Assembly (NCBI GenBank): GCA_964491945.1 | Contig: CAZBHO010000008.1 | Coordinates: 471-64,470 of the forward strand | Reading direction: 5' to 3' | DNA: 64,000 bases | From: an uncultured Verrucomicrobiota bacterium | GTDB taxonomy: Bacteria; Verrucomicrobiota; Kiritimatiellia; JAAZAB01 | In this document: in pieces, positions 10,104 through 42,223 of the stretch | Layout of the letters: each line of letters starts with the position of its first letter | Numbering within the stretch: the first letter of the stretch is position 1 | Notes under the pieces: model-generated | Told to the model about the DNA's origin: nothing | What the model saw: the letters and a program-made list of their open reading frames with translations, nothing else | Databases searched by the model: none | Translations under genes and position numbers: made by a program

Positions 10104-10138
10104 AGATAGTGACGTAAAAAAGAGAGAAAGGCAAAACT

Positions 10139-11651
<1,513 letters not shown>

Positions 11652-24483: not shown

Positions 24484-24716
24484 AGTGTTACCTCTTGAAA
24501 GAATTATTTAAATCCTCATAGATATTAGCAGTTAATAGTTCTACTAAGAGAGCAATTTTAAAACTTGCATATAACTTGCTTATAAAAACTCTTATGTAGG
24601 ATTATGCAGCTATTGTCAATTATAAAATTGTGGCATATTTCTTTAAAGAATAATAAATTATGTACTCTTTAGAAAAAAGAAATGCTATGGCATCTGGAAT
24701 GCTTTAAGCAAATGCT

Positions 24717-25427
24717 ATGAACTTTTTTTTGACAAAATGTAGTTTCATAAGACAGCGTGGACTGTTTTGTTTTTTATTGATTTTGGCAGAGGTGCTTTAT
24801 GTAGAGTGCTCTTTTGCGCAATTTTCTGGACCTTCCAAATTGAAACAGCTAGAAATGAAGGCAGAAGATAGAGATTTTTATGCAAAGCGCACAAAAGAGC
24901 TTGAAATGCGGCTGAGCGAAGCGGAGATGGTGATTTCTAATATGACACGTCAGCTGGAAAGTCAGCGTCCGCAGGAGGCAGCAAAGAGGATACAGGAGCT
25001 GGAAAGGAAAGCGCTTGCTTATGATGCCATAGTGCAGTCTGTTGAAAAAAAGGATGGCACATTGGTAAGCGTTTCCACAAAACTTTCCGAAGCAGAAAGG
25101 ATAAACAACGAGTTGCGTCAGAAAGTTAGCGAATTAGAGAAGAAGATAGTGGAGCTTGAAGATGAAATAAAGCGATTAAAGGATGTTGAAGCAGGGCTAC
25201 GCAGCACCATTCAACAGATGATGTTAGGAAACTTTGAATACTATGAGGTTAAGGAAGGCGATACGATCTCTTCAATAGCGGCAAAGCCCACTGTTTATGG
25301 TGATGCTTCCAAAGCAATATGGCTAAAGCAAGCTAATAGAAACTGGATAGCAGATTTTGATTCACTGGAGCCGGGCGAAGTTTTGATTATTCCACGTTTT
25401 CCACCAGCTGGTCGCTACGAATTTTAA
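24717..25427 (+). CDS. Secreted coiled-coil protein with a C-terminal LysM peptidoglycan-binding domain
   Basis: 236 aa. Signal peptide, a long coiled coil (QELERKALAYD...VELEDEIKRLKD) and a LysM motif (YEVKEGDTISSIAAK...PGEVLIIP). Confidence 0.6.
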   Translation: MNFFLTKCSFIRQRGLFCFLLILAEVLYVECSFAQFSGPSKLKQLEMKAEDRDFYAKRTKELEMRLSEAEMVISNMTRQLESQRPQEAAKRIQELERKALAYDAIVQSVEKKDGTLVSVSTKLSEAERINNELRQKVSELEKKIVELEDEIKRLKDVEAGLRSTIQQMMLGNFEYYEVKEGDTISSIAAKPTVYGDASKAIWLKQANRNWIADFDSLEPGEVLIIPRFPPAGRYEF

Positions 25428-25439
25428 CGAGGTATTTTA

Positions 25440-26216
25440 ATGAAGCCATTAACAGCAATTCTGGTTGATGATGAAGTTCTTACAAGATGGATAACGAAAA
25501 GAGCTATAGAAAATCTAGGGATAACTGTTTTTGAAGCGGAATCCTGTGCTGAAGCAGAGGGGAAATTTTTATCGCTTTCTTTTGATCTGGCTATTCTTGA
25601 CCACAGGTTGCCGGATGGTTTTGGAGTAGATATTTTAAGGAAACTACGCTCCAACAGATGGGGTGGTGTGGCAATATATCTTACGGCAGAGACGGAACTT
25701 ATAGATGAAGAGTTGCAGCGTAGTTTAGATATTTATAAATTGATCAAGAAACCACTGAATATAGAAGAACTAAAAGATGTGATTTCTGGGTTATCTATTG
25801 TTGGGAAAGGACAGGCAGCGCCATTGGTGGAAAGCGATTTCCGCAAGGTTGGCAATTTTAGTTTATTTGCTGGTAAGATGCTGTTAAATGAAGAATCGCT
25901 AGAAAAGGTTAGAAACGAATGCAGTAGCAGTGGCTGGGTTGCTGTGGATCTTAAGGATATTAATGCTATTTCGGAAAATGAAATAAAGATGCTTGTTGAG
26001 CTTGCGAATACTTGCAGAGAAAGGCGTGGTAGGTTTTGTGTTGTGGGGGCGAGTGGGAAGCTAATAAGTTATTTTATTGAGAAGGGGATTGATAAAGAAT
26101 TTGATATGGTTTCTGATGAAGATTTTTTGGAGGCGCTTTCTCGTAGACCAACATCAATTTGTGAGCGCTCTATGTTATTGGATAGCGTTATAATTCGTGA
26201 AAATAAACGAGAATAG
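25440..26216 (+). CDS. Response regulator with a STAS (anti-sigma-antagonist-like) output domain
   Basis: 258 aa. REC features: DD (10-11), phospho-Asp in 'AILDHRLPDG', T in 'YLTAE', K in 'LIKKP'. The C-terminal domain is STAS-like. Confidence 0.55.
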   Translation: MKPLTAILVDDEVLTRWITKRAIENLGITVFEAESCAEAEGKFLSLSFDLAILDHRLPDGFGVDILRKLRSNRWGGVAIYLTAETELIDEELQRSLDIYKLIKKPLNIEELKDVISGLSIVGKGQAAPLVESDFRKVGNFSLFAGKMLLNEESLEKVRNECSSSGWVAVDLKDINAISENEIKMLVELANTCRERRGRFCVVGASGKLISYFIEKGIDKEFDMVSDEDFLEALSRRPTSICERSMLLDSVIIRENKRE

Positions 26217-26219
26217 GCT

Positions 26220-28490
26220 ATGAAACAAATAATGCAATTTTTTAAAAGCGCAGAAAGTAGCAGGTTTCTTAATAAGATCGCTAAAATCGGTATGGTAATA
26301 TTTGCGGCGGCTGCTATTGGCGTTTCTATTTTCTTGTATGCAAAAGCTTTTTCGTTTAAGCCAGAGCCAACTGAAATTAAAGCCATGCACGAAGCTCAGT
26401 TCCTTGCGTTTATTCGTGATGCCAGAAATCTTGCCTTGCATATGCGCTTTGAGGAAGCGGAGAAGAAGTTGAGAGCTGCAATAGATCAGGCGCCAAACCA
26501 CAAATTAAAAGTTAGCGCCGCGTTGGCAATGGGTGAAGCTTTAATGATACATTCCCGCTATAAGGCGCATCCTTATGCTTTAATGACTATGCGATATCTC
26601 GAAGGTGTTCTGGAATTAAAAGATGAACTTACGGAAGAAGAAAAACGAAGAACCTACGAAGCAATTTTTCAGACGCTGACGATCCAGAAAGATGTTTCTA
26701 CCGCTTTGAAATATCTACCTGATGCCATTAAAGAGTTTCCATCTGATAAGGATAAGACGGCTATTTATGAACAGCTTATAAAATTATCTATGGAGTATGG
26801 CTCTTATAGCGGAACTTTGAAGTTGTTACAAGAAGCAAAAGAGCTATTTAAAAGAGGAGGTGATATTGACTTCATAACTTTTACGGAACTTCAGGCAAAG
26901 GAAAAAGCATTTTGGAATGAAGATTGGTTTAAAGAATATAAAGCCCGCTTTTCTCCTACAGAACCGGAAAAAGAACTTAAAACAAGTTTACTATCTGACG
27001 TTATAAAAGAGTATCAACGGATTGCGCAAAAAGCAAAAAAGGAAAGGAAGGCAGAATGTCTTTTCAGAATAGGGAGGCTTCTTGAAAGAGCTGGCGAATA
27101 TCAATCTGCGAAAAAGTATATGCAGGAGTTTTTAGATAGTAATCCTTCTTCCTTTGCCGATGAGGCAATGCTGGTTTTGATGAGAATAGGGATGGCAGAG
27201 GGGAACTTGCGAATGACGTTGGAGAACGCTTTTGCTTACATCAACCGTTATTGGGTTAATGATAAATCTTACGAAGCGCTTCTTGCTGCAATCAAGATGG
27301 CAGAAGAAAAATACAATTATGCTGATGCTTATAAGCTGGCAAACAACATTACGCAGTTGGCTGTTTGTGAAAAAAGAGAGCTTTTCCATCTTTATGCTGC
27401 ACGTGTGGCAAACAGGCTGGGACTTAATAATGAAGCTGCATGGCACTATATGCAGTATTTACAGTCCTTTCCTGACAATGCTCATCTGTCAAGTTTTTTA
27501 AGGACAATGGCAGATATATGTATTGAAAGGAATGATCTTGTGAGTGCAGATAGATGGTTGAATGAGTATTTAGTTCGTCTTCCCTTCACAAAGGAATCGG
27601 AAGATGTGCTATATCAACTCTGCCAGGTCCGTATAAAAAATAATGCGCCGTTGCCCGACATTCTATTTGTCGGGATGTTAACGTCTGAGATGAATCCTTC
27701 CAACCATCAAACTTTAGAGATACTTCTTGCTGTTGCCAGACAGATGGAAGAGGCAGGTGTTTATGGACTTGCTGAAAAGCAATATAATAAGATAGCACTT
27801 ATGAGATATGCACATGGCAAGGAAGATGGCAAAGAACCTTCAGATATTACTCAAATTATAGCTCAAGCCACTTTGGGCAAAGCACGTTGCCTGCTATTTA
27901 AAGGGGATCTTGTGAAAGCGGATCATCTGTTTAGGGAGATATGCCGCATTTATAAATCCGGGCCAGTTCGTTCAGAAGCAGCTTACTGGTGGGGCACTAT
28001 GGCTGTGGCTGAAGATCAACTCGAAGAAGCCCTGCGTAGATTCAATATGGTTAATAGAGATGAGTTGCCAAAAGACCTTGCTGCAAGATATGATTTCGAA
28101 GTAAATCTAATTGAAATTCAGAAGCGTGGCAAAACTTCGTATACGCTTGCGGCGCTGTTTGCAAACCTATCTCAACTGCCAGCTGCAGAACGCTATAAAT
28201 ATGCCAGCAAAGCCTTTGCTGCTTATTTTAAGAGAATGGAAGAACTAAATGATGTTGTCGGGATGAAGGCTCTGCTTGACTATGTGTCAAAAAGCCCCTA
28301 TGCCGAAAATGTTCCATTAAAAGATTATTATTTCCGTATGGCTTACAAGATGCTTAAAGATCAGCAGATAAGTGGCATTGTAATGAATGCTTTGTTAGGC
28401 GGCGGCACAAGATCGCTGACATCTGCTGAAATAAATGGAATTCAACAGCAAGCGTCTGATATAAAAGATGTTTTAACGAAAAATCTTTAA
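26220..28490 (+). CDS. Membrane-anchored TPR-repeat protein
   Basis: 756 aa with an N-terminal TM (IGMVIFAAAAIGVSIFLY) and multiple TPR-like helical repeats. Confidence 0.55.
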   Translation: MKQIMQFFKSAESSRFLNKIAKIGMVIFAAAAIGVSIFLYAKAFSFKPEPTEIKAMHEAQFLAFIRDARNLALHMRFEEAEKKLRAAIDQAPNHKLKVSAALAMGEALMIHSRYKAHPYALMTMRYLEGVLELKDELTEEEKRRTYEAIFQTLTIQKDVSTALKYLPDAIKEFPSDKDKTAIYEQLIKLSMEYGSYSGTLKLLQEAKELFKRGGDIDFITFTELQAKEKAFWNEDWFKEYKARFSPTEPEKELKTSLLSDVIKEYQRIAQKAKKERKAECLFRIGRLLERAGEYQSAKKYMQEFLDSNPSSFADEAMLVLMRIGMAEGNLRMTLENAFAYINRYWVNDKSYEALLAAIKMAEEKYNYADAYKLANNITQLAVCEKRELFHLYAARVANRLGLNNEAAWHYMQYLQSFPDNAHLSSFLRTMADICIERNDLVSADRWLNEYLVRLPFTKESEDVLYQLCQVRIKNNAPLPDILFVGMLTSEMNPSNHQTLEILLAVARQMEEAGVYGLAEKQYNKIALMRYAHGKEDGKEPSDITQIIAQATLGKARCLLFKGDLVKADHLFREICRIYKSGPVRSEAAYWWGTMAVAEDQLEEALRRFNMVNRDELPKDLAARYDFEVNLIEIQKRGKTSYTLAALFANLSQLPAAERYKYASKAFAAYFKRMEELNDVVGMKALLDYVSKSPYAENVPLKDYYFRMAYKMLKDQQISGIVMNALLGGGTRSLTSAEINGIQQQASDIKDVLTKNL

Positions 28491-28507
28491 AAATAGAAGG
28501 GCTTATT

Positions 28508-28888
28508 ATGAGTGAGCAAGAGATAATAGCAACGCTTATTAAGGGGCGTGATAGGTGTAGAAAACTTATACAGCTCTATAGGAATTTGCATCTTAATGAA
28601 GATGCAAATGGCGCTAAAAAATCTTATGACCTTACTTCTATGAATACAATCAGCGTTTTATTATCTCAGATGCTTGAGTGCTTAAGGAGCCTGCCACCAA
28701 AGCCGTCTTTAAAGATAACTTCTATGCCAGATAAGATTCAGGCAGAAAAAATAATGCAGGAAATTCATGATCTGATAGAGGGAGTAATTGTGGCAGAGCG
28801 TGAAATCAGAGAACGTTACCTAAAACAGAACACACCACCTGCTGGTGCCAGCAGGCTTTCTGCTTTGCGTTTATATGCCGGAGGATAG
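28508..28888 (+). CDS. Hypothetical protein (126 aa)
   Basis: ORF with an RBS (GAAGGG) immediately upstream of the sensor kinase gene. No recognisable motif. Confidence 0.35.
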   Translation: MSEQEIIATLIKGRDRCRKLIQLYRNLHLNEDANGAKKSYDLTSMNTISVLLSQMLECLRSLPPKPSLKITSMPDKIQAEKIMQEIHDLIEGVIVAEREIRERYLKQNTPPAGASRLSALRLYAGG

Positions 28889-28893
28889 AAAAT

Positions 28894-30192
28894 ATGGAAA
28901 CAACAGTTTTAACACAGGAAAAAGAGATTGCAGCCAAAACTGCGCAGGAGCGCAAGCAGACATTTGAAATTTTGAAAACAAACGAGGTGCTTGATCGCAT
29001 AAGAAACGCCTTTGAAGTTTTTGATGCTCAAAGCGCAATGTTGCAACGCTCATTTGAAAATCTGCGTAGGAATCTTGCAGAAGCCAATCATCAGCTTCAA
29101 TTAAAGAACAAAGCCCTTTCCGATAAAGTTCAGGAGCTCGAACAAATGTCTAGCCGTCTGCAGTGCATACTGGATAGTCAGGCAGATGCCGTGCTGGTGG
29201 TGGGTCCATGTTTAATTATAGAGCGATGCAATCCTGTTGCTGAAGTTTTGCTTGAGAAGCCACGAATGCAGATAGAGGGCAGTATATATTCTGATGTGTT
29301 AAATGGGCTTGGCAACTTACAGGCATTAAAGGCAGCTCTGGAAGAAGGGATTACCTGCGTTGATGAGCAACGGGCACATACTGATGCACATGGACAAAAG
29401 AGGATCGTGCTTGCAAGCATATCTCCCATTTACACGCAGGAACGCAAGATTATAGGGGCAGTGGAAGTTTTGCGTGATGTTACGCGCCTTCGCTTTTTAG
29501 AGGAGCGAATGCAGCATCAGAAGCGTATGGCAGTTTTGGGTGAAATGGCTGCAAGCGTGGCTCATGAAATAAGGAATCCGCTCGGAACCATAGAAGGCTT
29601 TGCAAGACTTTTAAAAAGCGATCTTGAGCGTGATAAATTGCATAACCATGCCAGACTTGCCTCAAAAATCATAGAAGGCGCCCAAAATTTAAATTACGTC
29701 ATTACCAATCTTCTTACTTATGCCAGACCTATGTCTTTGCAGTATGAGACCTTTGAGGCAGCTCACCTCCTTTCAACCAGTGCAGATCAGCTGATGCCAC
29801 TTGCGGCGCAATATAAAGTTCAATTGGATATAGTTCAGCCTGCTTCTCCCATATCTATAAATGGCGATATACGTCAATTGCGGCAGGTGATTGTGAATTT
29901 AGGTAGGAACGCCATTGAAGCCTGTAAAGCGGGTGGCAAAGTTTCCATTAGTATAACTGAACGGCGGCGGATGATAACGATTTCTGTGATTGATAATGGC
30001 TGTGGAATTAATCCAAAGGATCTGCCAAAGATTTTTGACCCATTCTTTACCCGCAAGGAAGGCGGCACGGGATTGGGGTTATCGCTTTGTCATAAAATAG
30101 TTGCTGCCCATGGCGGCGATATAAATGTAAACAGTGTTGTAGGGAAAGGCACCACTATCAATGTAGTGTTGCCACAATATGGAGGTAAGTAA
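28894..30192 (+). CDS. Sensor histidine kinase (PAS + HisKA + HATPase), NtrB/FlrB-like
   Basis: 432 aa with an H-box 'VAHEIRNPLGTIEGFARLL' and N/G boxes (GRNAIEA, DNGCGI, GGTGLGLS). Overlaps the downstream regulator. Confidence 0.8.
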   Translation: METTVLTQEKEIAAKTAQERKQTFEILKTNEVLDRIRNAFEVFDAQSAMLQRSFENLRRNLAEANHQLQLKNKALSDKVQELEQMSSRLQCILDSQADAVLVVGPCLIIERCNPVAEVLLEKPRMQIEGSIYSDVLNGLGNLQALKAALEEGITCVDEQRAHTDAHGQKRIVLASISPIYTQERKIIGAVEVLRDVTRLRFLEERMQHQKRMAVLGEMAASVAHEIRNPLGTIEGFARLLKSDLERDKLHNHARLASKIIEGAQNLNYVITNLLTYARPMSLQYETFEAAHLLSTSADQLMPLAAQYKVQLDIVQPASPISINGDIRQLRQVIVNLGRNAIEACKAGGKVSISITERRRMITISVIDNGCGINPKDLPKIFDPFFTRKEGGTGLGLSLCHKIVAAHGGDINVNSVVGKGTTINVVLPQYGGK

Positions 30193-30193
30193 T

Positions 30194-31657
30194 ATGGCAA
30201 GTTCAATAGAAACAGCTCTTGTGGTTGATGATGATGCCCTGATGCGTGAGTTCATTGTTGAAACGCTCAGACGCAATAAAATAGCTGTAACGGAAGCCAC
30301 CAATGGACTTGAAGCCAAAGAACTGCTAGAGCAAAATGAATATGATCTGGCATTTCTGGATGTCAAGATGCCAGGAATGGATGGAATGCAGCTCCTTAAG
30401 GCGATCAAGACTTTGAATATAGGGACACTTCCTGTCATCATTACGGCTTTTGGGACTGTGGAAAGAGCTGTTGAAGCAATGCGTTGTGGAGCTTATGACT
30501 TTTTGATGAAACCATTTTCACCAGAACAGGTGGAAATTATAATAAACCGCGCAAAAGAGTTGGTGGAACTACAAGCACAAAACGCCTATCTAAAAGAGGA
30601 GTTAGGCTGGATATTGCCAAAGGGCAAGCAGATTGTTGGGCAAAGCGAGGCAATAAAGAAGTTGATGCGCGATGTTGCGCAGGTTGCATCCTCTAATTCC
30701 ACAGTCCTCATCGCAGGGGAAAGCGGAACAGGTAAAGAACTGGTTGCGCTTGCCATTCACTCCTTAAGTCCACGCAAAAATGGACCTTTCATCAGAATGA
30801 ATTGTGCAGCAGTGCCGGATACATTGATGGATAGCGAGCTTTTTGGGCACGAAAAAGGCGCATTCACAAGCGCGGTTAATCGCAGAATCGGCAGATTTGA
30901 ACTTGCGAACAACGGGACATTGCTGCTTGATGAAGTTAGCGAAATGAACATAGGCGTACAGGCTAAGCTGTTACGTGTGTTGCAGGAGCACGAATTTGAA
31001 AGAGTTGGCGGAAGCCACACAATACAAACCAATGCCAGAGTTATTGCAACAACAAATCGCGTTTTGAAGCAATATGTTGCCGAAGGCAAGTTCAGAGAAG
31101 ATCTCTATTATAGATTGAATGTTGTGCCTCTTTATATTCCCCCTTTGCGGGAGCGCGTGGAAGATATTCCGCTTTTAGTCAAGGCTTTTGCGGAGCGTTT
31201 TGCTTATGCTAAAGATAAGAAAGCCGAACCAAAGGAGTTTAATCAGGAAGCCATTGATGCATTGAAAGCTTATAACTGGCCTGGCAATGTCCGTGAGCTT
31301 GAAAATCTTATGGAGCGTATATGTGTTATGGAAAACGCTCAAGTTATAACTATTGATATGCTTCCCCCAGAAATTCGTAATGGCAAATCAACAGCGCATT
31401 CTGTATCTATGGCTGTACCTGAAACTCATACGGCATCTAACGATCAGCCGGAAGCAGAATTAAGACAAGTTTCTTCTCCAGAGCAAGAAACAACAATGTT
31501 TAATATCCCCACTATTGAAAAAATCACCATATTTAAGGCTTTGAAGGCAACGGGTGGCAATAGGAAGAAAAGCGCAGAATTGCTTGGAATAAGCATCAGA
31601 ACGTTGCGGAATAAGCTTAATCAATATAAGCGTGAAGGAGAGAAAATAGAGGTGTGA
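30194..31657 (+). CDS. Sigma-54-dependent response regulator (REC + AAA+ sigma-54 interaction + Fis HTH), FlrC/FleR/FlgR-like
   Basis: REC (LVVDDD...FLDVKMPGMDG), Walker A 'GESGTGKELVA', the 'GAFTSA' sigma-54 contact motif, an R-finger region and a C-terminal HTH (KKSAELLGISIRTLRNKL). ATG 30194 is preferred over the track's 30179 because GGAGG lies 9 nt upstream. Confidence 0.85.
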   Translation: MASSIETALVVDDDALMREFIVETLRRNKIAVTEATNGLEAKELLEQNEYDLAFLDVKMPGMDGMQLLKAIKTLNIGTLPVIITAFGTVERAVEAMRCGAYDFLMKPFSPEQVEIIINRAKELVELQAQNAYLKEELGWILPKGKQIVGQSEAIKKLMRDVAQVASSNSTVLIAGESGTGKELVALAIHSLSPRKNGPFIRMNCAAVPDTLMDSELFGHEKGAFTSAVNRRIGRFELANNGTLLLDEVSEMNIGVQAKLLRVLQEHEFERVGGSHTIQTNARVIATTNRVLKQYVAEGKFREDLYYRLNVVPLYIPPLRERVEDIPLLVKAFAERFAYAKDKKAEPKEFNQEAIDALKAYNWPGNVRELENLMERICVMENAQVITIDMLPPEIRNGKSTAHSVSMAVPETHTASNDQPEAELRQVSSPEQETTMFNIPTIEKITIFKALKATGGNRKKSAELLGISIRTLRNKLNQYKREGEKIEV

Positions 31658-31660: not shown

Positions 31661-31676
31661 TGGCATTTGACTTGCT
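31661..31676 (+). promoter_or_regulatory. Sigma-54 (-24/-12) promoter for the flgB operon
   Basis: TGGCAT-ttgac-TTGCT matches the TGGCAC-N5-TTGCW consensus with correct GG/GC spacing. It lies 14 nt upstream of the flgB ATG region. Confidence 0.55.
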
Positions 31677-31689: not shown

Positions 31690-32044
31690 TATGACACCAA
31701 CAATTTCAACTTTGGCAACAGTTTTGGAAGCCACAAGCAAGCGCCAGAGTGTGCTTGCAAATAATCTGGCAAACGCTAATACACCTTTTTATAAAAGGCT
31801 GGATCTTAAATTTAAGGATGAACTTGCTAAAGCTATATCAAGCGGCGATATTAATGAGATCCAAAATTTTAAACCAACTATTGTTGAAGACACCACAACG
31901 CCAGCCAGACCTGATGGAAACAATGTTTCTCTGCAAAAAGAAATGGCAGAAATAAACGAGAACGCATTGCTTTTCAATTTTGCTGCTAAAGCTATTGCAA
32001 AAAAATTTGATGGGTTAAAGAAAGCAATCAAAGGAAGAGGATAA
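31690..32044 (+). CDS. flgB: Flagellar basal-body rod protein FlgB
   Basis: 'VLANNLANANTPFYKRLDLKF' matches the rod-protein N-terminal consensus. Start taken at MTPT (RBS GAAGGAAG) rather than the track's 31667. Confidence 0.8.
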
Positions 32045-32058
32045 TAAGGAGCTAGAAA

Positions 32059-32493
32059 ATGTCAGAAGTAAGTATAATGCCATCTCTACAAATAAGCGCA
32101 ACAGGGCTTGAGGCAGAAAGCCGGAGAATGGAGGTTATAGCTAATAACGTTGCCAATGCGCAAACAACGCATTCTAATCCAGCGCTTGTGTATAAAAGAA
32201 AAGAAGTTGTCTTTGCAGAGAAACTGGCAGAAGCCATCGGTACAGCTGGTGATGAAAAGAAATTACAAGGCGTTCAAGTTGCGAAAATAGCAGAGAACCC
32301 ACGTCCACCTAAAATGGTTTATAGACCGGGGCATCCTGATGCCAATGCGGAAGGATTTGTTGCTATGCCAAATATAAGCATCGTTGAAGAAATGGTTGAT
32401 ATGATGAATGCCTCTCGTACTTATGAGGCTAACCTTGCAGCGATGCGAACGGCAAAAGGAATGATAAATCAGGCGTTGGAAATTATAAAATGA
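32059..32493 (+). CDS. flgC: Flagellar basal-body rod protein FlgC
   Basis: 'ISATGLEAESRRMEVIANNVANAQTT' and a C-terminal 'YEANLAAMRTAKGMINQALEI'. Confidence 0.85.
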   Translation: MSEVSIMPSLQISATGLEAESRRMEVIANNVANAQTTHSNPALVYKRKEVVFAEKLAEAIGTAGDEKKLQGVQVAKIAENPRPPKMVYRPGHPDANAEGFVAMPNISIVEEMVDMMNASRTYEANLAAMRTAKGMINQALEIIK

Positions 32494-32554
32494 TTATTTT
32501 TTTCTTGCTTTATTTATGCTACAATAAGGGCTTGATGTTAAGGAGATGAATGCG

Positions 32555-32878
32555 ATGAATATCTCGGAACTTCAAAATTTACAGGGCAAAAGAATTGAAG
32601 AAAATCCAATGCTTTTACCCACTGCCACAGGCGCAGGCAAAGCACAGGGCGATGATGCTTCTTTCCGGGACGTGCTTGGCAAACTTGTAGAAAAAGTTGA
32701 TTCTCTGCAAAAAGATGCGGATAATTCAATAAAAGATTTAGTTACTGGGCAAGGCAATGTTAGTGTCCATAACGTGGCAGTGAAAATGGAAGAAGCAAGC
32801 GTCGCTTTTGATTTAATGATGGAAATACGAAATAAGCTGTTAGAGGCTTATCAGGAAATATCAAGAATGCAAGTTTAA
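32555..32878 (+). CDS. fliE: Flagellar hook-basal body protein FliE
   Basis: A ~107-aa protein with a FliE-like C-terminus (VAVKMEEASVAFDLMMEIRNKLLEAYQEI). ATG 32555 is preferred over 32546 because of RBS spacing. Confidence 0.75.
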   Translation: MNISELQNLQGKRIEENPMLLPTATGAGKAQGDDASFRDVLGKLVEKVDSLQKDADNSIKDLVTGQGNVSVHNVAVKMEEASVAFDLMMEIRNKLLEAYQEISRMQV

Positions 32879-32891
32879 GGAGTAAAGAACT

Positions 32892-34457
32892 ATGCCCAGT
32901 TCAATTCAAGTTATAGGTGTCCAGATAAAAGAATTATGGCGAAACTTCGGACCGAATCAGAAGGTGAGCATTATTCTTGCTTTATTGGTTTCGCTTGCTG
33001 CAGTTGCTGGTGTGTTATATTGGAGCTCAAGGCCTGACTTTCAGCTCCTATATTCTGGGCTTACTACCAAAGACGCTGCAGCAATGCGCGAAAAATTAAG
33101 TGATGAAAAGATACCTGTCGAGATCCGTGATTCAGGGCACTCCCTTTATGTTCCTGCAAAAGATGTCTATAGAGCAAGGTTGCTTCTTGCAAAGGAAGGT
33201 TTACCAAAGGAAAGTTCAACGGGCTTTGAGCTTTTTGAGCAACCGAAATTTGGTCTTACAGATTTTGCGCAGAAGGTTAATTATCAGAGAGCACTTGCAG
33301 GGGAACTGGAAAGGACTATTGCTGCAATGGAAGGCGTTGAAGCTGCAAGAGTGTTGCTGGTTCTGCCAAAAGATAAATTGTTTGCATCAGAAGCGGAGCA
33401 AAAAGCTAGTGCTGCAGTTCTGGTGACAACTCGCGGCGGTGCACTTCTTACCAGTGCGCAGGTGCAAAGCATAGTGAATCTCGTGGCAAGCTCTGTGCCG
33501 GGCCTTACGCCAAATGCCGTAAAAGTTTCTGACCATACAGGTAGGCTATTAACAAAAGCTGGCTCAACAGAAGATGAGTCATTCGATGCTGCAAGTGATC
33601 AGCTTGCAATTCAAGAGAAGCTTGAACAGATGCTTGCGAAGAAAGCGCAGGAGATGCTTGATATAGCGCTTGGAGCAGGGCAATCGGTTGTTAAGGTTAG
33701 TGCACAGCTGGATTTTAGCAAGATAGATAAACGCATAGAAAATTATGATATAGAAAATAGAACCGTTAAATCAGAAAGTATTCAATCTGAAAACACATCT
33801 ACTCCCGGCGGCGGTCCTGGCGGCTCGGTAGGAGTTGTTTCTCAAATTCCTGTAGGCTCACCTGCTGCTGGAACGGTTGAACAGCCTATGGCAAAAAGCA
33901 AGAAGGAGAATATTAAAACGGAATATGTTATTCCTTCTGAAGTGCAACAGATGACTGTGCGGGGTGGACGCATTGTTTCGCTTTCTGTTTCGGTCTGCCT
34001 TGCCAAAGGTGAAAAGCCACGTAACATTACTGAAATAGAGAATATGGTTAAAAATGCTGTTGGGTTTGTTGAGAATGAGACAAGAAAAGATACAATTAAA
34101 GTGGTTGAAATGGAATTTCCAACTGTGCCTGAAGCTCCGAAGCAGCCTCTCTGGAAATCGTTACCTGTTGGCTGGAGCACTATAGGCAATGTGGCTATGT
34201 GGTTGATTTTGGCGCTGGTTGTGTTTATAATAACCCGTAAGTTTATGGCTGGAATAACAGTCAAGCAGGAATCTGTTGGCGTTCCAGTGCAGAACCTTAC
34301 AGGAGCTGAAGGAGGTTTCCCGGGCGCTGTGGGCGGACAACGCCGAACAGCATGGGTGGATCAGGGACTTGAAAAGAACTTGTCAGAATTGAACCGTATA
34401 GCAGAACAGAATCCGAAAGCAATTGCTGCGTGGATAACGAGCGTTGCTAATCAATAA
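32892..34457 (+). CDS. fliF: Flagellar MS-ring protein FliF
   Basis: 521 aa with an N-terminal TM, 'YQRALAGELERTIAAMEGVEAARVLLVLP' and a C-terminal TM. Confidence 0.85.
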   Translation: MPSSIQVIGVQIKELWRNFGPNQKVSIILALLVSLAAVAGVLYWSSRPDFQLLYSGLTTKDAAAMREKLSDEKIPVEIRDSGHSLYVPAKDVYRARLLLAKEGLPKESSTGFELFEQPKFGLTDFAQKVNYQRALAGELERTIAAMEGVEAARVLLVLPKDKLFASEAEQKASAAVLVTTRGGALLTSAQVQSIVNLVASSVPGLTPNAVKVSDHTGRLLTKAGSTEDESFDAASDQLAIQEKLEQMLAKKAQEMLDIALGAGQSVVKVSAQLDFSKIDKRIENYDIENRTVKSESIQSENTSTPGGGPGGSVGVVSQIPVGSPAAGTVEQPMAKSKKENIKTEYVIPSEVQQMTVRGGRIVSLSVSVCLAKGEKPRNITEIENMVKNAVGFVENETRKDTIKVVEMEFPTVPEAPKQPLWKSLPVGWSTIGNVAMWLILALVVFIITRKFMAGITVKQESVGVPVQNLTGAEGGFPGAVGGQRRTAWVDQGLEKNLSELNRIAEQNPKAIAAWITSVANQ

Positions 34458-34489
34458 AAGTTTTTAAACTGATAAGGAGTAAAAACGGT

Positions 34490-35506
34490 ATGCCCATAAC
34501 ATCATTGGCTATTAAAAAAGAGCTAACAAATGATGAGAAAGTGGCAGTTTTAATTGCAAGCCTTGAAGCCAGACTTGCAGCTCAAGTTCTTCAGCAACTT
34601 GAGCCTTCGTTAATGTTAAGAGTAACGAAAGCACTGCGTGGACTTGGCATAGTGCCAGGTGAAGTGCGGGAAAAAACAATTGCCAGTTGCCTGCAGGGCA
34701 TTCATGAACTTGGCGAAGCTGTACATGGGGATGAAAATCTTGCTAATACATTGCTCGTTCAGGCTGTTGGTGAAAAAAAGGCTTCAGCTTTGCTTGCTGA
34801 TTCGCAACGTAGCACTTCAAATGCTTTTAGCGAACTGACAAGATTGAGCGCAGATCAAATTGTAACCTTATTGGTACACGAGCAACCTGCAGTTATTGCG
34901 CTTGTATTGAGATTTTTACCACCCCAACTTGCAGCGGAAGTGCTTGAATTGCTTCAAAGTGAAATACGCCGTAAGGTGATCGTTTGTATGTGCGTGAATT
35001 CCGAACCTTCTTCTGAAATCATAGCAAGAATGAATGAGCTTTTAAGCGCCAAAGTGGCGGCTGGTTCATGGAGCAAGAAATCGAGTGAAAGCGATAGAAT
35101 TGAGTTTGTTACGCAAATAATTCAACATTCAAAGAGAAATGTTGAAGAAGATTGTCTTTCAGCCATTCAGGAAAAATCTGAGGCATTAGCAAGTGCAATT
35201 CGCGATAAATTGTTCACCTTTGAAGATATTGTTAAACTCAGCGATGTTGCAATGAGACGTATAATGTCTGAAATAGATATGGGAGTGCTGGCAATTGCCC
35301 TGCGTAATGCTAATGCTGAACTTAAAGATAAATTCTTCCGTAACATGTCTAAACGCGCAGCTGAAGGCTTGAAACAGGAAATGGAATACTCACAAAAAGT
35401 GCGTCTTTCTGAAGTGGAAGCCAAACAGAAAGAAATTGTTAATATAATTAGAAATCTACAGGCTGAAGGACAGATAGCAGTTTCATCAGAGGATGAATAT
35501 GTCTAA
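34490..35506 (+). CDS. fliG: Flagellar motor switch protein FliG
   Basis: 338 aa with the C-terminal torque helix region 'MSKRAAEGLKQEMEYSQKVRLSEVEAKQKEIVNIIRNL'. Confidence 0.85.
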   Translation: MPITSLAIKKELTNDEKVAVLIASLEARLAAQVLQQLEPSLMLRVTKALRGLGIVPGEVREKTIASCLQGIHELGEAVHGDENLANTLLVQAVGEKKASALLADSQRSTSNAFSELTRLSADQIVTLLVHEQPAVIALVLRFLPPQLAAEVLELLQSEIRRKVIVCMCVNSEPSSEIIARMNELLSAKVAAGSWSKKSSESDRIEFVTQIIQHSKRNVEEDCLSAIQEKSEALASAIRDKLFTFEDIVKLSDVAMRRIMSEIDMGVLAIALRNANAELKDKFFRNMSKRAAEGLKQEMEYSQKVRLSEVEAKQKEIVNIIRNLQAEGQIAVSSEDEYV

Positions 35507-36098
35507 CACTATAGTCATCAGCAACGGTAAATCTGGGAAAATTACGATATCACCAGCGGTGAGAAACGGAAAGAAAGATACCGCACCTACGCAGAATCAA
35601 GAGCTTGATATGAATGCCATCCAGCAGCAAGCCCTAATAAAAGCTCAAATTGAAATGAAAAAAACTCTAGACAGCCACATCAAGGCTAAAGCTGAAGCTT
35701 GTAAAAAATGTATGGGAAAACTCAACAGCACTTTGGATGCCTTGCGGAATGAAATAGGAGAGCGTGTTATAGAACTATCTGTCAGAATAGCGGAGATAAT
35801 TCTTCATCACGCTCTACCGGATCGTCAAATGATATTGGAAATACTCAAGCAGACTTTAGCCCCTATTTCTGATTTGCAAGGCGTCCGTATCAGAATGAAT
35901 GCTGCTGATGTGGAAAATTTAAAAGAGAACAATGCTATGCCTGCCTTGCTTAATAGGATTGAACTTATTCCCGATCCAACGCTTGCTGCAGGTGATATGA
36001 TTGTGGAAAGCAAAAATGGCATATTTGATGCCAGAATAGATGAACGACTTAAACTACTTGAAGATAAACTAAAACATAGAGTGACACAAGGTGAATGA
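35493..36098 (+). CDS. fliH: Flagellar export/assembly protein FliH
   Basis: 201 aa, coiled-coil, positioned between fliG and fliI. Confidence 0.65.
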   Translation: MNMSNTIVISNGKSGKITISPAVRNGKKDTAPTQNQELDMNAIQQQALIKAQIEMKKTLDSHIKAKAEACKKCMGKLNSTLDALRNEIGERVIELSVRIAEIILHHALPDRQMILEILKQTLAPISDLQGVRIRMNAADVENLKENNAMPALLNRIELIPDPTLAAGDMIVESKNGIFDARIDERLKLLEDKLKHRVTQGE

Positions 36099-37422
36099 AC
36101 TATTATCAGCACTTAATCCAGATAAACTGCTTGAGGGCTTGGAAAAAGAAATATTTGTAAAGCAGGAGGGGCGGGTTTTTGAAGTTACAGGGCTCACAGT
36201 AAAGTCTATTGGTCCGCATCTTTCTATCGGAGATTTTGCCTGGATAGAAACAGATGGCGGAAATTCAGAAAAAAAATTCATTCCATGCGAGACAGTTGGC
36301 TTCCGTGATCCGTATGTTTTACTTATGCCAGTTGAGAGGCTTGGTGGAATAAGACCCGGCGCAAGAGTGATAAGAGGGAACAAAATGACAGTAGGGGCGG
36401 GTTACTCTATGCTTGGCAGGATAGTGGATGGACTCGGCAGACCAATTGATGGTGGACCAGAGTTTACGAATTTGGAAGAGATTGAAATTGAGAGAAATGC
36501 CCCGCCAGCTATGATGAGGAAGCCTTTAAAGGATGTGCTTGTTACTGGAATTAGAGCAATTGATTCTGTATTGACGGTGGCTGAGGGACAGCGCATGGGG
36601 ATTTTTGCTGGAAGTGGCGTAGGCAAAAGCGTGCTTATGGGCAGCCTTGCAAGGAATTCAAGTGCTACAATAAATGTTATTGCTCTTGTTGGGGAGCGTG
36701 GTAGGGAAGTTCGCGATTTTATTGAAAAAAATTTAGGTAAGGATGGTCTAAAAAAATCTGTTGTTGTGGCTGTTGCTTCTGATCAATCGCCTGTTATGAG
36801 AATTAAAGGCGCTTCCACTGCTATGGCTATCGCAGAGTATTTTAGAGATAGAGGCGAAAAAGTTCTCTTCTTGATGGATTCTGTTACACGCTGCGCTATG
36901 GCGCAAAGAGAAATAGGACTTGCTGTTGGTGAACCACCAACAACGAAGGGATATCCACCGAGCGTATTTGGATATTTAGCGCGTCTTCTGGAAAGATCTG
37001 GCTCTTCAGACAAAGGCAGCATAACAGCTTTTTTCACGGTTTTGGTCGAAGCAGATGATATGAATGATCCAATTGCAGATACGGTGCGTTCTATTCTTGA
37101 TGGACACATTGTGCTTTCGCGTCGCATTGCCGCAATGAATCATTATCCGGCAATTGATGTATTAAACAGCATAAGCCGTCTGATGAGCGATATTGTTTCT
37201 CCTCATCATAAAGAACTGGCAGCAAAAATGCGCAGTATAATGGCAGTTTATACTAAAGCTGAGGATCTGGTGAATGTTGGAGCCTATGTGCAGGGCTCAA
37301 ATCCAAAGATAGATGAAGCGCTAAAAAAGATAGACAGGATAAATGCATTTCTACAGCAAGAGCCGAATTTAAAATCATCTTTTGAAGATACAATAAAATT
37401 GCTGGAAAAGACTGTGTTATGA
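36091..37422 (+). CDS. fliI: Flagellum-specific ATPase FliI
   Basis: 443 aa with Walker A 'GIFAGSGVGKSVLMG' and Walker B 'LFLMDSVTR'. Confidence 0.9.
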   Translation: MNELLSALNPDKLLEGLEKEIFVKQEGRVFEVTGLTVKSIGPHLSIGDFAWIETDGGNSEKKFIPCETVGFRDPYVLLMPVERLGGIRPGARVIRGNKMTVGAGYSMLGRIVDGLGRPIDGGPEFTNLEEIEIERNAPPAMMRKPLKDVLVTGIRAIDSVLTVAEGQRMGIFAGSGVGKSVLMGSLARNSSATINVIALVGERGREVRDFIEKNLGKDGLKKSVVVAVASDQSPVMRIKGASTAMAIAEYFRDRGEKVLFLMDSVTRCAMAQREIGLAVGEPPTTKGYPPSVFGYLARLLERSGSSDKGSITAFFTVLVEADDMNDPIADTVRSILDGHIVLSRRIAAMNHYPAIDVLNSISRLMSDIVSPHHKELAAKMRSIMAVYTKAEDLVNVGAYVQGSNPKIDEALKKIDRINAFLQQEPNLKSSFEDTIKLLEKTVL

Positions 37423-37898
37423 AAAAATTTGAGTTTTCACTTCAAAAACTGTTGGATGTAGAAGAAGCTCATGAAAAGGCTGCTGAGCAAAAGCTCGCAG
37501 CCGCTAAACGCCAGTTGCATTCTGCACAGGAAGAGTTAAAGCGCATAAGGGCCAGAATGGATAAAGAAATCAATGCTATTGAAACATTCAAGGGCACACA
37601 AACAGCCAGACATAACTTAATGAATCACATCAAATATCTTGAAAGGCTTCAATATATGGTTGTTCAGCAATCGCAACGTGTGGCAGAATGTCAGATAGAG
37701 GTGGATAAATGTATAGAACTTCTGCATCAAATTATGAGGAAACGCAAAACACTTGAGAAGTTAAAAGAGCGTGAAAAAGCTATATGGCAGGAAGAGGAAA
37801 AAAAAACTGAACAGAAACAACTAGATGAATTTGCAGTAATAGGACACTATAGAGCTTCAATGAATAGCTCCATAGAAAATGTTAAACATCATACATAA
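37419..37898 (+). CDS. fliJ: Flagellar export chaperone FliJ
   Basis: 159-aa coiled coil immediately after fliI (4-nt overlap). Confidence 0.65.
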   Translation: MKKFEFSLQKLLDVEEAHEKAAEQKLAAAKRQLHSAQEELKRIRARMDKEINAIETFKGTQTARHNLMNHIKYLERLQYMVVQQSQRVAECQIEVDKCIELLHQIMRKRKTLEKLKEREKAIWQEEEKKTEQKQLDEFAVIGHYRASMNSSIENVKHHT

Positions 37899-37912
37899 AA
37901 CAATAAGACGAT

Positions 37913-38542
37913 ATGAAAATAGCATTTTTGATATTATGTTTTTTATGTGCAATTCTGGTTAATCTACTCATGTTTATTATGATGACAGGAATTGTTCCTT
38001 TTAGACCTCCACAGAAGCCTATCTATATAAAAGAACCTATAGTGCTTACAAAACAGTTTACTGGCACAAATGATATGGCAGCTATTGGGGCAACTCCTAT
38101 TTATAGCACTCTGGGCAATAAAGCTGTGGATGAACTGGTGGCTTCTCTTAAGGCTGAAAAGGAACAACTTGCCAAGAAAGCGGCTGAACTTGCCACTAAA
38201 GAAGAGCTGCAGGCTAAAACAATTGCCGCATTAAAAACTGAACTGCTTCAGCTGCAAGAAGCTTTAAATAAGCAAATAGTTGAAATACAAACCACAGAAC
38301 AGGCTAATTTAAAGAAACTTTCAGAAATGTATTCAAAAATGGATCCTGCTGGGGCAGCAAAGTTGCTTATAGAGATGGACAAGGAAAAAGCTGCCACCAT
38401 CTTGAGTCTTATGTCAGATAGGTCGGCGGCGGCAATCCTTGATAGCGCAGTGCAGGAAAAAGATAAAGGCACTGCTGCGGCAACTGCATGGACGGATATA
38501 ACTCGTCGGCATGAAGCCAAAAAGAAAGAAAAAACGAAATAA
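37913..38542 (+). CDS. MgtE-N-like flagellar protein (B. subtilis YlxF / FlbB / MotE family), membrane-anchored
   Basis: 209 aa with an N-terminal TM, a coiled coil and 'MDPAGAAKLLIEMDKEKAATILSLMSDRSAAAILDS' (MgtE_N-like). Its position between fliJ and fliK matches the Bacillus/spirochete operon. Confidence 0.5.
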   Translation: MKIAFLILCFLCAILVNLLMFIMMTGIVPFRPPQKPIYIKEPIVLTKQFTGTNDMAAIGATPIYSTLGNKAVDELVASLKAEKEQLAKKAAELATKEELQAKTIAALKTELLQLQEALNKQIVEIQTTEQANLKKLSEMYSKMDPAGAAKLLIEMDKEKAATILSLMSDRSAAAILDSAVQEKDKGTAAATAWTDITRRHEAKKKEKTK

Positions 38543-38554
38543 AGGAACTGGAAA

Positions 38555-40396
38555 ATGCCATCTTCAATAGCTGATGTATTGTTTGCAAAAAATACCACTG
38601 TTCCTGAAAAAGAAAATACAAGAGGCAAAATAGACCGCTCAGAGGAAAAAAATTCCTTCTCAAGCTTTGTCTCTAAAGCAATTATTTCAAAAGAAGAAAA
38701 TGGGCATAAAACAGAATATGATAATTCTTCTGTGAATGCCCGAAAGCTAACTGAAAATGCATATCAAGCTAAACAGGAAGAAACATCTTCTGATAATAAC
38801 ATATCAGAAAAGAAAGGGCTTGCTCCCAAAAATGAGTCACCTAAAGAAGAGGTTAACGGGAAAGATTTTGCTCAAAATGAGGAAACAGCAAAAGAAAATA
38901 AGGCTATCGTTCAGGGAGATACGGGAGCAGTAGCCGAAATTGATTTATCACAAAAGCAGGTTCAGCTTTTACAGGAAGATGCTCTTAATGCAGAGATCAA
39001 TGCTTCTGCCGCTTTATTGGAAGAAATGCAAAATTCTGATCAGGTTGTAACTGATTCTCTAAAAAATCAGGATTTAATGGGCAATAGCACAAAATTGTTT
39101 GCTGAAAATCTTATGTTTAATAATAATGGCGTGGCGGAAGAAGCAAATTCCGGCAGCGCAACCGCCAGAACTCCCGCGCTAGTTAGAGGAGAGCCTTCAA
39201 TATCCTCTCTTGTGCCGGAAGCTAAAAACCCCACGCCAAAAATTGCAAATAATAAACTGGGTCAATCGCTTGTCTCGCCAGGTGAGATTAATGATGTTGA
39301 TGCTGATACTGAAAATACAGTGAGAGTAAATGAAACAGAAGTAGAAGATAATACAGCGGAAGTTCAAGTAAATATCATTAAGAAAGAGATAAAATCGGCG
39401 CAGGAAATGTCTGTTAAGCCATTTGCTCAAAAGAGCGTTGCGGAAAAAACGCAAGAAAACAAATTGAATACTATATCAGACAAAGTGATGGTGACAGAGC
39501 AAAAGGGCGAGGAAATATTTCGTAATGCATCAAGAGGGCAGTCTGAAGTAACTGATAATATGAAGAATGGGAGTGTAGAGACTGACAATACAGAGCAACT
39601 GGTTAACAGGAAAGTTATAGAATTTGACGTCAAGAATGCACAGAAAAATGCTGGCGGTTCTGTGAAAGAGCAACAGATAGCTGGTAAAGAAGGTGCTACG
39701 AGCCATGGGAACACCTCGCAAAAAGATGCTTCCTTGAATAAAGAAGCTCGTGAAGGATTGCCTGATAAAAGCGAGCCCAATGTGAAAGTTGGAGGCTCAA
39801 AAGAGAAGATTATGGATGAAATTTCAAGCAATCTTCTCAAACAAAATGATAATGTGATGCATAATTTAAAGGCAGGACATCAGGTTGTTGAGCGTATGGC
39901 TACTCATAGGGTTCCAACACAGACAGGTTTTAATGAAATAGTCAGCCAGACTGTATCAAAGGTGGAGCATTTTCAATCGGTAATAGAGAACATAGATAGA
40001 TATGTGCTTTCAATGGTTAAGGAACCTTCTGGCAAGACGATTACGGTGACGCTCATTCCTGAATATCTTGGCAAGGTTGTTTTAAGTTGCAAAGAAGAAG
40101 GGACAAGGGTTGTGGTAGAGATACAAGCAGAAAACAATATGGTGCGTGAAATGCTGCAAAAAGAAGAAGCCACAATCAAATCTATGCTTGAACAGAATGG
40201 ATTTAAGTTGAGCCAATTTGATGTTCATACAAAATCTGAACAACAGGCCAGAAATAATGAGAGGAATTTTGAAGGAAGAGAAGAATATGATGGAGCAACA
40301 CAACGGCGCAACGAGGCAAAATCCCACAACGCTCAACCGACGAAAACGGGTACTGCTGCAACAGGCAGAAGGAATGGCTTCTGGTGGGTTGCCTAG
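38555..40396 (+). CDS. fliK: Flagellar hook-length control protein FliK
   Basis: 613 aa with a long low-complexity N-terminal region and a conserved C-terminal Flg_hook domain (TITVTLIPEYLGKVVLSCKEEGTRVVVEIQAEN...LSQFDV). Confidence 0.75.
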   Translation: MPSSIADVLFAKNTTVPEKENTRGKIDRSEEKNSFSSFVSKAIISKEENGHKTEYDNSSVNARKLTENAYQAKQEETSSDNNISEKKGLAPKNESPKEEVNGKDFAQNEETAKENKAIVQGDTGAVAEIDLSQKQVQLLQEDALNAEINASAALLEEMQNSDQVVTDSLKNQDLMGNSTKLFAENLMFNNNGVAEEANSGSATARTPALVRGEPSISSLVPEAKNPTPKIANNKLGQSLVSPGEINDVDADTENTVRVNETEVEDNTAEVQVNIIKKEIKSAQEMSVKPFAQKSVAEKTQENKLNTISDKVMVTEQKGEEIFRNASRGQSEVTDNMKNGSVETDNTEQLVNRKVIEFDVKNAQKNAGGSVKEQQIAGKEGATSHGNTSQKDASLNKEAREGLPDKSEPNVKVGGSKEKIMDEISSNLLKQNDNVMHNLKAGHQVVERMATHRVPTQTGFNEIVSQTVSKVEHFQSVIENIDRYVLSMVKEPSGKTITVTLIPEYLGKVVLSCKEEGTRVVVEIQAENNMVREMLQKEEATIKSMLEQNGFKLSQFDVHTKSEQQARNNERNFEGREEYDGATQRRNEAKSHNAQPTKTGTAATGRRNGFWWVA

Positions 40397-40430
40397 ATGC
40401 GCCTTAATTTTAAAAATGGAGGAATGAATT

Positions 40431-40931: not shown

Positions 40932-40970
40932 ACATGAGAAACAAAAACCTATTAAGGAAGGAAGACTACA

Positions 40971-41896: not shown

Positions 41897-41931
41897 CCCG
41901 ATGCGGGCTTTGAGCCCGCATCGTTTTTTTT
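41897..41931 (+). terminator. Rho-independent terminator after flgE
   Basis: A perfect 10-bp stem GATGCGGGCT-ttg-AGCCCGCATC is followed by TTTTTTTT. Confidence 0.8.
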
Positions 41932-42010: not shown

Positions 42011-42223
42011 ATGATAGCACTTACTGATTTGCACGGCAGGCTTTTCTTTATTAACGCGGATATGATAGAAAAAGTGGAATCAACTCCTGATACGCAAATT
42101 GTTCTTTCCAATTCGCATGTGTATTACGTAAAAGAAAAACCGGAAGAAGTTATTAAGCGCGTAATAGAATTTCGCAGGCAATGCACTATCGAAAAGGAAA
42201 AAACAGATAACAAAACATTATAA
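42011..42223 (+). CDS. flbD: Flagellar protein FlbD
   Basis: 70 aa. 'LTDLHGRLFFINADMIEKVESTPDTQIVLSNSHVYYVKE' matches the FlbD family, and the gene lies upstream of motA as in Bacillus and spirochetes. Confidence 0.7.
   Translation: MIALTDLHGRLFFINADMIEKVESTPDTQIVLSNSHVYYVKEKPEEVIKRVIEFRRQCTIEKEKTDNKTL

Follow-up and report, generated by a model that had tools for sequence, protein, structure and literature searches.

The locus described here, positions 24717-31657 of a 64-kb stretch of DNA from an uncultured Verrucomicrobiota bacterium (the whole 64,000 nucleotides analysed, hereafter the window), holds six co-directional genes, in which four accessory proteins are encoded directly in front of a sigma-54 two-component system, and the whole block in front of a flagellar rod operon. 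All six open reading frames (ORFs) lie on the + strand, and the coordinates given for them by a first-pass annotation of this DNA were all reproduced from the ORF list. The genes, together with the two promoter motifs that concern them, are as follows.

24688..24703, + strand: -24/-12 sigma-54-type promoter TGGCATCTGGAATGCT before the LysM gene (strict motif match)
24717..25427, + strand: exported coiled-coil protein with a C-terminal LysM domain, 236 aa (Pfam LysM; signal-peptide-like N-terminus)
25440..26216, + strand: response regulator with receiver (REC) and STAS domains, REC-STAS, 258 aa (Pfam Response_reg; STAS by profile tests)
26220..28490, + strand: TPR protein, exported or membrane-anchored, 756 aa (Pfam TPR repeats, one N-terminal hydrophobic segment)
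28508..28888, + strand: p126, a small cytoplasmic helical protein, 126 aa (no Pfam family)
28894..30192, + strand: soluble histidine kinase (HK), 432 aa, with coiled-coil, PAS, HisKA and HATPase_c regions (Pfam)
30179..31657, + strand: RR54, an NtrC-family sigma-54 activator, 492 aa, with REC, AAA+ and HTH_8 domains (Pfam)
31661..31676, + strand: -24/-12 sigma-54-type promoter TGGCATTTGACTTGCT before flgB (strict motif match)

Within the block, 12, 3, 17 and 5 nt separate successive genes up to that of the kinase, which overlaps the activator gene by 14 nt. The first-pass annotation had described four tightly spaced, co-directional genes that run straight into HK and RR54, these two overlapping by 14 nt, and both the ORFs and the gaps are confirmed. 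The sigma-54 promoter and flgB that it placed just after the activator are also there, with TGGCATTTGACTTGCT beginning at 31661, 3 nt past the stop codon at 31655-31657.

Relatives of the block were collected by a word-indexed search covering 5.8 billion sequences, to which gene context and further scans added loci. The word-indexed search returned only two full-length relatives of the REC-STAS protein; an exact look-up of the window protein in the contig index gave no match, and a metagenome scan with a STAS-domain alignment found no relative. A second metagenome scan, this time with p126 as the query, added two loci. The gene arrangement recurs in at least 13 distinct loci of Planctomycetes-Verrucomicrobia-Chlamydiae (PVC) bacteria, with GC contents of 41-67%, the named records being metagenome-assembled genomes (MAGs) of Verrucomicrobiota, Victivallaceae and Kiritimatiellae as well as Lentisphaerota proteins. 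In nine distinct loci (the window, L001/L002, L004, L005, L006, L010, L011, L013 and one Logan contig) the order LysM, REC-STAS, TPR, p126, HK, RR54, flgB is kept in full, and flgB lies directly downstream in 9 of the 13 informative loci. Three Kiritimatiellae loci (L003, L007 and L008) carry LysM, REC-STAS, TPR, HK and RR54, without p126 and with no flgB downstream. L015 holds solely a second NtrC-type regulator (RR54#2), LysM, REC-STAS and TPR, followed by unrelated convergent genes, and L014 is a short contig with a LysM gene and a long form of REC-STAS. What varies least across these loci is the trio LysM, REC-STAS and TPR, with its own sigma-54 promoter in front.

This order is kept at considerable sequence distance: relative to the window, identities are 22-47% for the accessory proteins, except in the close relative L004 (71-88%), and 49-71% for HK and RR54. 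An apparent REC-STAS-TPR fusion (P0038, in L010) was not accepted as evidence of a functional fusion, since the TPR gene is there split into three ORFs on what appears to be a long-read contig, and the fusion is likely to result from frameshift errors.

With the strict sigma-54 pattern TGGCAY-N6-TGCW, four occurrences were found in the window, against 1.2 expected. TGGCATCTGGAATGCT, at 24688-24703, ends 13 nt before the ATG of the LysM gene and was absent from the first-pass annotation. A strict motif stands at this same position in L001, L003, L007, L008, L010, L013, L014 and L015, and in L006 a weaker one of the CGGCA form. On the flgB side, the strict motif is found in the same position in L001, L004, L005, L006, L010 and L013. 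Sigma-54 motifs thus occupy the same two positions in at least nine divergent loci, with nearly no other strict matches there. The LysM-side motif ends 12-14 nt before the start codon (window 24688-24719; L003 1605-1635; L007 8236-8266; L013 5377-5409), and in several loci a Shine-Dalgarno-like GGAGG lies inside the -10 to -1 stretch before the LysM start. The flgB motif of the window is likewise near its ATG, at 14 nt. Because homologues of flgB align from the methionine of ATG 31691, this codon is most likely the flgB start, in place of the TTG at 31667 chosen by the ORF caller; from the RR54 gene to flgB there are then 33 nt, with no terminator between.

Because the six-gene block has its own conserved promoter at 24688-24703, it is predicted to be sigma-54-transcribed itself, and hence to belong to the outputs of a sigma-54 cascade no less than to its inputs. 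When the regions upstream of the two promoters were searched for activator sites, no 9-mers common to both were found, which is weakly consistent with different activators for the two promoters. In L013, the promoter and about 30 nt after it occur as near-exact duplicates (5377-5392 and 6889-6904), the second copy directly before the REC-STAS gene, which in that locus may own a separate sigma-54 promoter. Since the gene order is deeply conserved and both sigma-54 promoters are kept in place, a functional tie of the four genes to the sigma-54 two-component system and the flagellar rod operon is supported, as judged from comparative sequence, and the linkage proposed by the first-pass annotation stands.

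In the relatives, a further regulatory pair lies upstream of the block. RR54#2 is found directly upstream of the LysM-side promoter in L003, L006, L007, L008, L011, L014 and L015, and within a few kb of it in L001 and L010. It shares 37-41% identity with RR54, and its phospho-accepting aspartate is normal. In L001, L006, L010 and L011, RR54#2 is preceded by a protein of 218-230 aa (HK2) with the H-box RHRLRNFASG and a HATPase_c domain, which by its domain content is predicted to be a sensor-less histidine kinase. The 218-aa HATPase protein of the relatives was also considered as an RsbW-like partner of the STAS domain and was rejected, as it carries a histidine-kinase H-box. Upstream of the block in L001 (1077-5827) and L010 (366-5306) stands a conserved signalling cluster, in which a hybrid kinase (REC-HisKA-HATPase) and a REC-HD-GYP protein are encoded along with the sensor-less kinase and RR54#2; this cluster hints at a cyclic di-GMP input into the first tier of the cascade.

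The receiver of REC-STAS is readily recognized (Pfam Response_reg, E=3.4e-14), with D11, D54 and K104 invariant in the family and threonine or serine at position 82 (T82 in the window protein). The second half is more divergent, and its Pfam STAS score of 18.7 bits is below the cutoff of 22.6. We therefore rely on profile comparisons. The C-terminal 136 aa were made into a profile, and an exhaustive search of 1.84 billion representative proteins with it retrieved 96 proteins, most of them of 240-290 aa with the domain at the C-terminus and the same architecture; the weak tail of this search consisted of 106-123-aa proteins that are Pfam-certified STAS, with E-values of 1e-9 to 1e-14. When 29 C-termini of the family were aligned by hhalign with 12 Pfam-certified STAS proteins, a probability of 98.7% and an E-value of 2.4e-16 were obtained, with some selection bias in these values, as the 12 proteins had been retrieved by the family profile. 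The AlphaFold2 model (pLDDT 78) has the strand and helix order of a STAS domain plus one additional C-terminal helix, and the best solved-structure sequence match of the domain is 4hyl. In a Foldseek search with the whole model, receiver domains were the top matches and dominated the result, which thus bears on the receiver half. Given the profile retrieval of certified STAS proteins, the hhalign result and the secondary-structure order of the model, the call of a divergent STAS domain holds, and with it the first-pass view of this protein as a response regulator with a STAS output, in spite of the sub-threshold Pfam score.

The same annotation had pointed to partner switching as the way in which STAS domains work, and in its classical form this does not carry over. 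The canonical phospho-serine (the column of SpoIIAA S58) is not conserved in the REC-STAS family, the window protein having a glutamate there, and no RsbW/SpoIIAB-type kinase, anti-sigma factor or PP2C phosphatase was found among the larger ORFs of the window that were scanned. Because both the phospho-serine and, in the window, an RsbW-type kinase and a PP2C phosphatase are missing, classical partner switching appears not to be applicable to REC-STAS. The most conserved part of the family is the extra C-terminal helix, with the motif (L/G)RRL(S/T)SxCERxxLLDSVV (also written SRRxxSxCERSxLLDSV), and this helix is a promising candidate binding surface. REC-STAS also exists in a long form (P0039, P0047, P0049, P0053, P0054, P0086; L014 1082-2920), of 555-612 aa, with about 350 unannotated residues between REC and STAS; in L014 it too follows a LysM gene.

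The family of the small protein p126 comprises 42 protein clusters, none of them named, and is confined to PVC bacteria, with Lentisphaerota and Verrucomicrobia as the sources that have names. It is present in all nine flgB-linked loci and absent from all three Kiritimatiellae loci without an adjacent flgB. Structure prediction gives a three-helix bundle with a tentative resemblance to FlgN and FliT, which are helical-bundle export chaperones; p126 lies outside their sequence families, the Pfam FlgN and FliT models giving no match on p126 even at E<=1 and neither protein appearing among its solved-structure sequence matches. FliT additionally inhibits FlhD4C2. That p126 may work in the manner of a flagellar export chaperone is a plausible lead. 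Two other proposals for this gene were rejected. As an HPt (histidine phosphotransfer) protein it would be expected to keep its histidine, and an alignment of 25 sequences contains no invariant one. A hairpin at 28838-28855, within the p126 gene, is a by-product of the codons for a conserved PAGASR peptide and is not credible as a terminator.

Two of the block's products are directed out of the cytoplasm. The LysM protein has a signal-peptide-like N-terminus, a coiled coil of about 110 aa and a conserved C-terminal domain that ends in IPRFPPSGRYEF; the LysM domain at this C-terminus scores 24.1 bits against a Pfam cutoff of 20.9, and the best solved-structure match of the C-terminal domain is the LysM domain of Kbp. 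We regard it as an exported protein whose domain lies above the curated threshold and whose peptidoglycan binding is putative. All 11 TPR homologues with a readable N-terminus start with a brief basic region and then a single hydrophobic segment, as in a signal peptide or signal anchor; the tail on the cytoplasmic side comprises 3-22 aa and is unconserved. A partial match to YbgF/CpoB (TIGR02795) reaches 49.3 bits, against a cutoff of 90.1, and covers 60 residues of TPR only. HK, REC-STAS and p126 have no membrane segment. Two proteins of the block would therefore be periplasmic and four cytoplasmic, with no encoded link between the two compartments visible.

HK matches Pfam PAS_4, HisKA and HATPase_c, has the H-box SVAHEIRNPL and contains no transmembrane or hydrophobic segment. 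RR54 has the domains of an NtrC-type sigma-54 activator (Sigma54_activat E=3e-69, REC E=1e-28, HTH_8 E=7e-13), and its GAFTGA loop reads GAFTSA. Against the NCBIfam equivalog models it scores 313 bits for FlgR and 379 bits for FlbD, where the cutoff is 750 in each case and neither is reached; its best model is AtoC, with 469 bits against a cutoff of 714. The function of RR54 and HK as a flagellum-associated two-component system is assigned from gene context alone.

Downstream of the block, the window continues with the following features.

31691..41834, + strand: flagellar operon flgB, flgC, fliE, fliF, fliG, fliH, fliI, fliJ, an unnamed gene, fliK, flgD and an flgE-like gene
41897..41931, + strand: strong intrinsic-terminator-like hairpin with a T-run, closing the flgB-flgE operon
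42011-42223: flbD, 70 aa (Pfam E=6e-23), before motA and missing from the ORF list

Beyond the hairpin at 41897-41931 follow flbD, motA, motB, a motB-like gene, fliL, fliM and fliN, and two or more transcription units are marked off in the flagellar cluster by the hairpin together with flbD. The motB-like ORF contains a near-consensus sigma-54 motif, TGGCACGATACTTGCA at 44325-44340 (+), some 200 nt before fliL; this motif may be an internal promoter for fliL, fliM and fliN. The motB gene (43012-43758) and the gene for the second, MotB-like membrane protein (43742-44494) stand one after the other; by Pfam neither product has an OmpA-like peptidoglycan-binding domain, and the degenerate OmpA-like motifs AAERAALVLAKIL and FERGSAVARYL are visible by eye. 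The idea that the LysM protein stands in for a peptidoglycan-binding domain missing from MotB was set aside, such motifs being kept in MotB and its paralogue.

On the other side, the upstream neighbour of the block in the window is a divergent glycogen phosphorylase gene, which is adjoined by a gene for a family B DNA polymerase with an exonuclease domain (19675-21930, - strand). A chemotaxis cluster occupies 5346-11651, with cheA, cheW, cheD, a gene for an HDOD protein, cheY, cheX and cheB, and a second HDOD protein is encoded divergently at 4392-5267. The window also contains, at 52031-54043 (- strand), a gene for a 670-aa membrane protein with a match to the eukaryote-typical Dpy19 C-mannosyltransferase-like family (PF10034, E=1.6e-13) and, at 54993-62179 (- strand), a pilus or secretion cluster that includes a 1116-aa secretin-TPR fusion and a 566-aa PilM-like protein.

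Taking these observations together, we tentatively favour the view that 24717-31657 is one sigma-54-transcribed operon with four accessory factors and serves as middle tier in a flagellar sigma-54 cascade restricted to PVC bacteria, although we would not yet call it probable. A first tier, made up in most relatives of HK2 and RR54#2 and located outside this window, would fire the promoter at 24688, as adjacency in the relatives suggests, and this promoter would express the block, including HK and RR54. In a second tier, RR54 together with its soluble PAS kinase HK would fire the promoter at 31661 and so drive flgB-flgE, including fliF, fliG and fliHIJ. Because only 33 nt and no terminator lie between RR54 and flgB, read-through from the first promoter could prime flagellar expression before amplification by RR54 sets in. 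REC-STAS would act as a second phospho-acceptor, in which the phosphorylation of D54, and not of a serine, sets what the STAS domain and the C-terminal helix bind; its likely partner would be a kinase or a sigma-54 activator, and binding would tune the cascade. p126 may couple the state of flagellar export or assembly to HK and RR54, as FliT does for FlhDC. The LysM and TPR proteins would be early, peptidoglycan-associated periplasmic factors that prepare or scaffold the insertion site of the flagellum, and would not be sensors.

Several points weigh against this cascade. Neither RR54#2 nor HK2 was found within the 64-kb window, and the pairing of activators with promoters follows from gene adjacency alone. 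The LysM and TPR proteins show no specific likeness to known flagellar scaffold proteins, their matches being generic TPR, CpoB and the LysM domain of Kbp, and the trio may not be flagella-specific, given that L015 lacks HK, RR54 and flgB and that the Kiritimatiellae loci have no adjacent flgB. In addition, canonical sigma-54 geometry places the GC at about -12; with this and a distance of 12-14 nt from motif to ATG, the LysM mRNA is predicted to be almost leaderless, with a 5' untranslated region of a few nt, despite the Shine-Dalgarno-like sequence there.

The main rival takes up the constancy of the trio: LysM, TPR and REC-STAS would be a general envelope or pole module (for peptidoglycan remodelling, or a landmark of the FimV/HubP/PodJ kind), controlled by RR54#2 and only secondarily fused upstream of flagellar genes in some PVC lineages. 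It is the trio with its promoter, usually with RR54#2 just upstream, that is most constant, L015 contains nothing else, and the Kiritimatiellae loci lack both an adjacent flgB and p126; the TPR region partly matches CpoB/YbgF, and a peptidoglycan-binding domain beside TPR or Sel1 repeats is also what known polar landmarks have. Nevertheless, 9 of the 13 informative loci continue directly into flgB, the block encodes no large cytoplasmic client-binding region of the sort that landmark proteins have, and at least one member of the Kiritimatiellae, Pontiella agarivorans, carries a complete set of flagellar genes at another place in the genome (PMC10880615). We consider a general module doubtful, while giving it real weight. 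That the four genes are unrelated neighbours, brought next to flagellar regulators by chance or rearrangement, is in turn effectively refuted and keeps hardly any probability, because the order is conserved at 22-47% protein identity, over GC contents of 41-67% and in several PVC classes; the gaps of 3-17 nt and the conserved promoter point the same way.

The first-pass annotation had instead proposed that LysM, TPR and REC-STAS form an envelope-sensing input layer, which would report the state of the peptidoglycan or envelope to the PAS kinase and thereby gate the flagellar sigma-54 cascade. The tight linkage of these genes to HK and RR54 across lineages fits such a role, as do the peptidoglycan-binding fold of LysM and an intact receiver that could accept phosphate from the adjacent kinase, and the signals that control kinases of the FlrB and FlgS type remain an open question (PMC7064773, PMC12607845). 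The main argument against it is that no protein of the block joins periplasm to cytoplasm: the LysM and TPR proteins leave the cytoplasm, HK is soluble, a transmembrane transducer is not among the products of the block, and of the TPR protein only an unconserved tail of 3-22 aa would lie in the cytoplasm. Moreover, the block stands behind its own conserved sigma-54 promoter, and the trio lies mostly behind RR54#2 and in L015 occurs without HK, RR54 or flgB. An envelope-sensing layer is for these reasons unlikely, and this part of the first-pass interpretation was not borne out. We also considered that REC-STAS, via its C-terminal helix, and p126 constitute a new partner switch, controlled by a receiver aspartate in place of a STAS serine, that gates a sigma-54 enhancer-binding protein or its kinase and not a sigma/anti-sigma pair, and couples the export or insertion state to the cascade, with LysM and TPR marking the insertion site in the peptidoglycan; so specific a mechanism is quite improbable at present.

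The cues sensed by the kinases of flagellum-associated two-component systems are still open, even in Vibrio and Campylobacter, and the present locus offers four conserved accessory factors as candidates, of which three lack a specific family annotation, inside a predicted two-promoter sigma-54 cascade. The candidates are a REC-STAS subfamily with a distinctive C-terminal motif, an unannotated 126-aa family, and an exported pair of LysM and TPR proteins. If REC-STAS acts on a sigma-54 activator or on its kinase, STAS partner switching would extend beyond the control of sigma and anti-sigma factors. The organisms are mostly uncultured and represented by MAGs, and every functional step given above is inferred. 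In open-access and preprint full text we found no description of this architecture, of REC-STAS regulators or of flagellar regulation in PVC bacteria, and the architecture is also absent from two key papers on sigma-54 flagellar systems, in agreement with the earlier statement that it is not a described one.

The closest parallels to HK and RR54 are FlrBC of Vibrio, FleSR of Pseudomonas and FlgSR of Campylobacter and Helicobacter, in which soluble kinases and NtrC-type activators fire the sigma-54 promoters of rod and hook genes after assembly of the MS ring, the rotor and the export apparatus (PMC7064773). FlrB has a polar location and is regulated through its PAS domain (PMC12607845). These systems (FlrBC acting below FlrA) and the pair described here have in common that the kinase is soluble and carries PAS and/or coiled-coil regions, that its partner is of the NtrC type, and that rod and hook genes stand directly behind a -24/-12 promoter (PMC7064773, PMC3930126). 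Two sigma-54 tiers would be a feature of this system as they are of Vibrio FlrBC-type systems; the first tier, however, would here be a phosphorylatable NtrC-type regulator with a sensor-less kinase, a type to which FlrA and FleQ are not known to belong. A further difference is that the promoter assigned to the two-component system also heads fliF, fliG and fliHIJ, whose products form the upstream checkpoint of Vibrio and Campylobacter, and the known checkpoint logic therefore cannot apply unchanged. Also different are the four extra conserved genes within the operon.

With the partial CpoB/YbgF match, the LysM and TPR proteins can be likened to the MotX/MotY T-ring, PflA/PflB, FimV/HubP, PodJ and CpoB, periplasmic factors of flagella or cell poles that bring together a peptidoglycan-binding module and repeats of the TPR or Sel1 type. 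There is no specific homology to any of these, and here the features are split over two proteins, neither with a cytoplasmic domain. FimV, HubP and PodJ are each one membrane-spanning protein with a large cytoplasmic client-binding region, whereas the block encodes two exported proteins with a tail of at most 22 aa.

For REC-STAS, an auxiliary receiver beside sigma-54 flagellar regulators is known from Xanthomonas, where VemR, a single-domain receiver encoded with rpoN2 and fleQ, binds RpoN2, drives flgG and so modulates rod-gene transcription through binding, without recognizing DNA (PMC6637908). A STAS output is lacking in VemR, whose homology to REC-STAS is limited to the receiver domain. 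Receivers that control a STAS protein, which then acts on flagellar or biofilm expression through protein-protein interaction, are found in HptB/PA3346 (HsbR)/PA3347 (HsbA) of P. aeruginosa and in SypE/SypA of V. fischeri, and in the former the STAS protein PA3347 acts on FlgM under the control of a REC-containing regulator (PMC8256260). In both systems REC and STAS are on separate proteins, coupled through a conserved STAS serine on which a serine kinase and a phosphatase act; in the block described here one protein contains both domains and the serine is not kept, and the larger window ORFs that were scanned include neither an RsbW-type kinase nor a PP2C phosphatase. Finally, the cascade with which REC-STAS is associated is one of sigma-54 and not of sigma-28.

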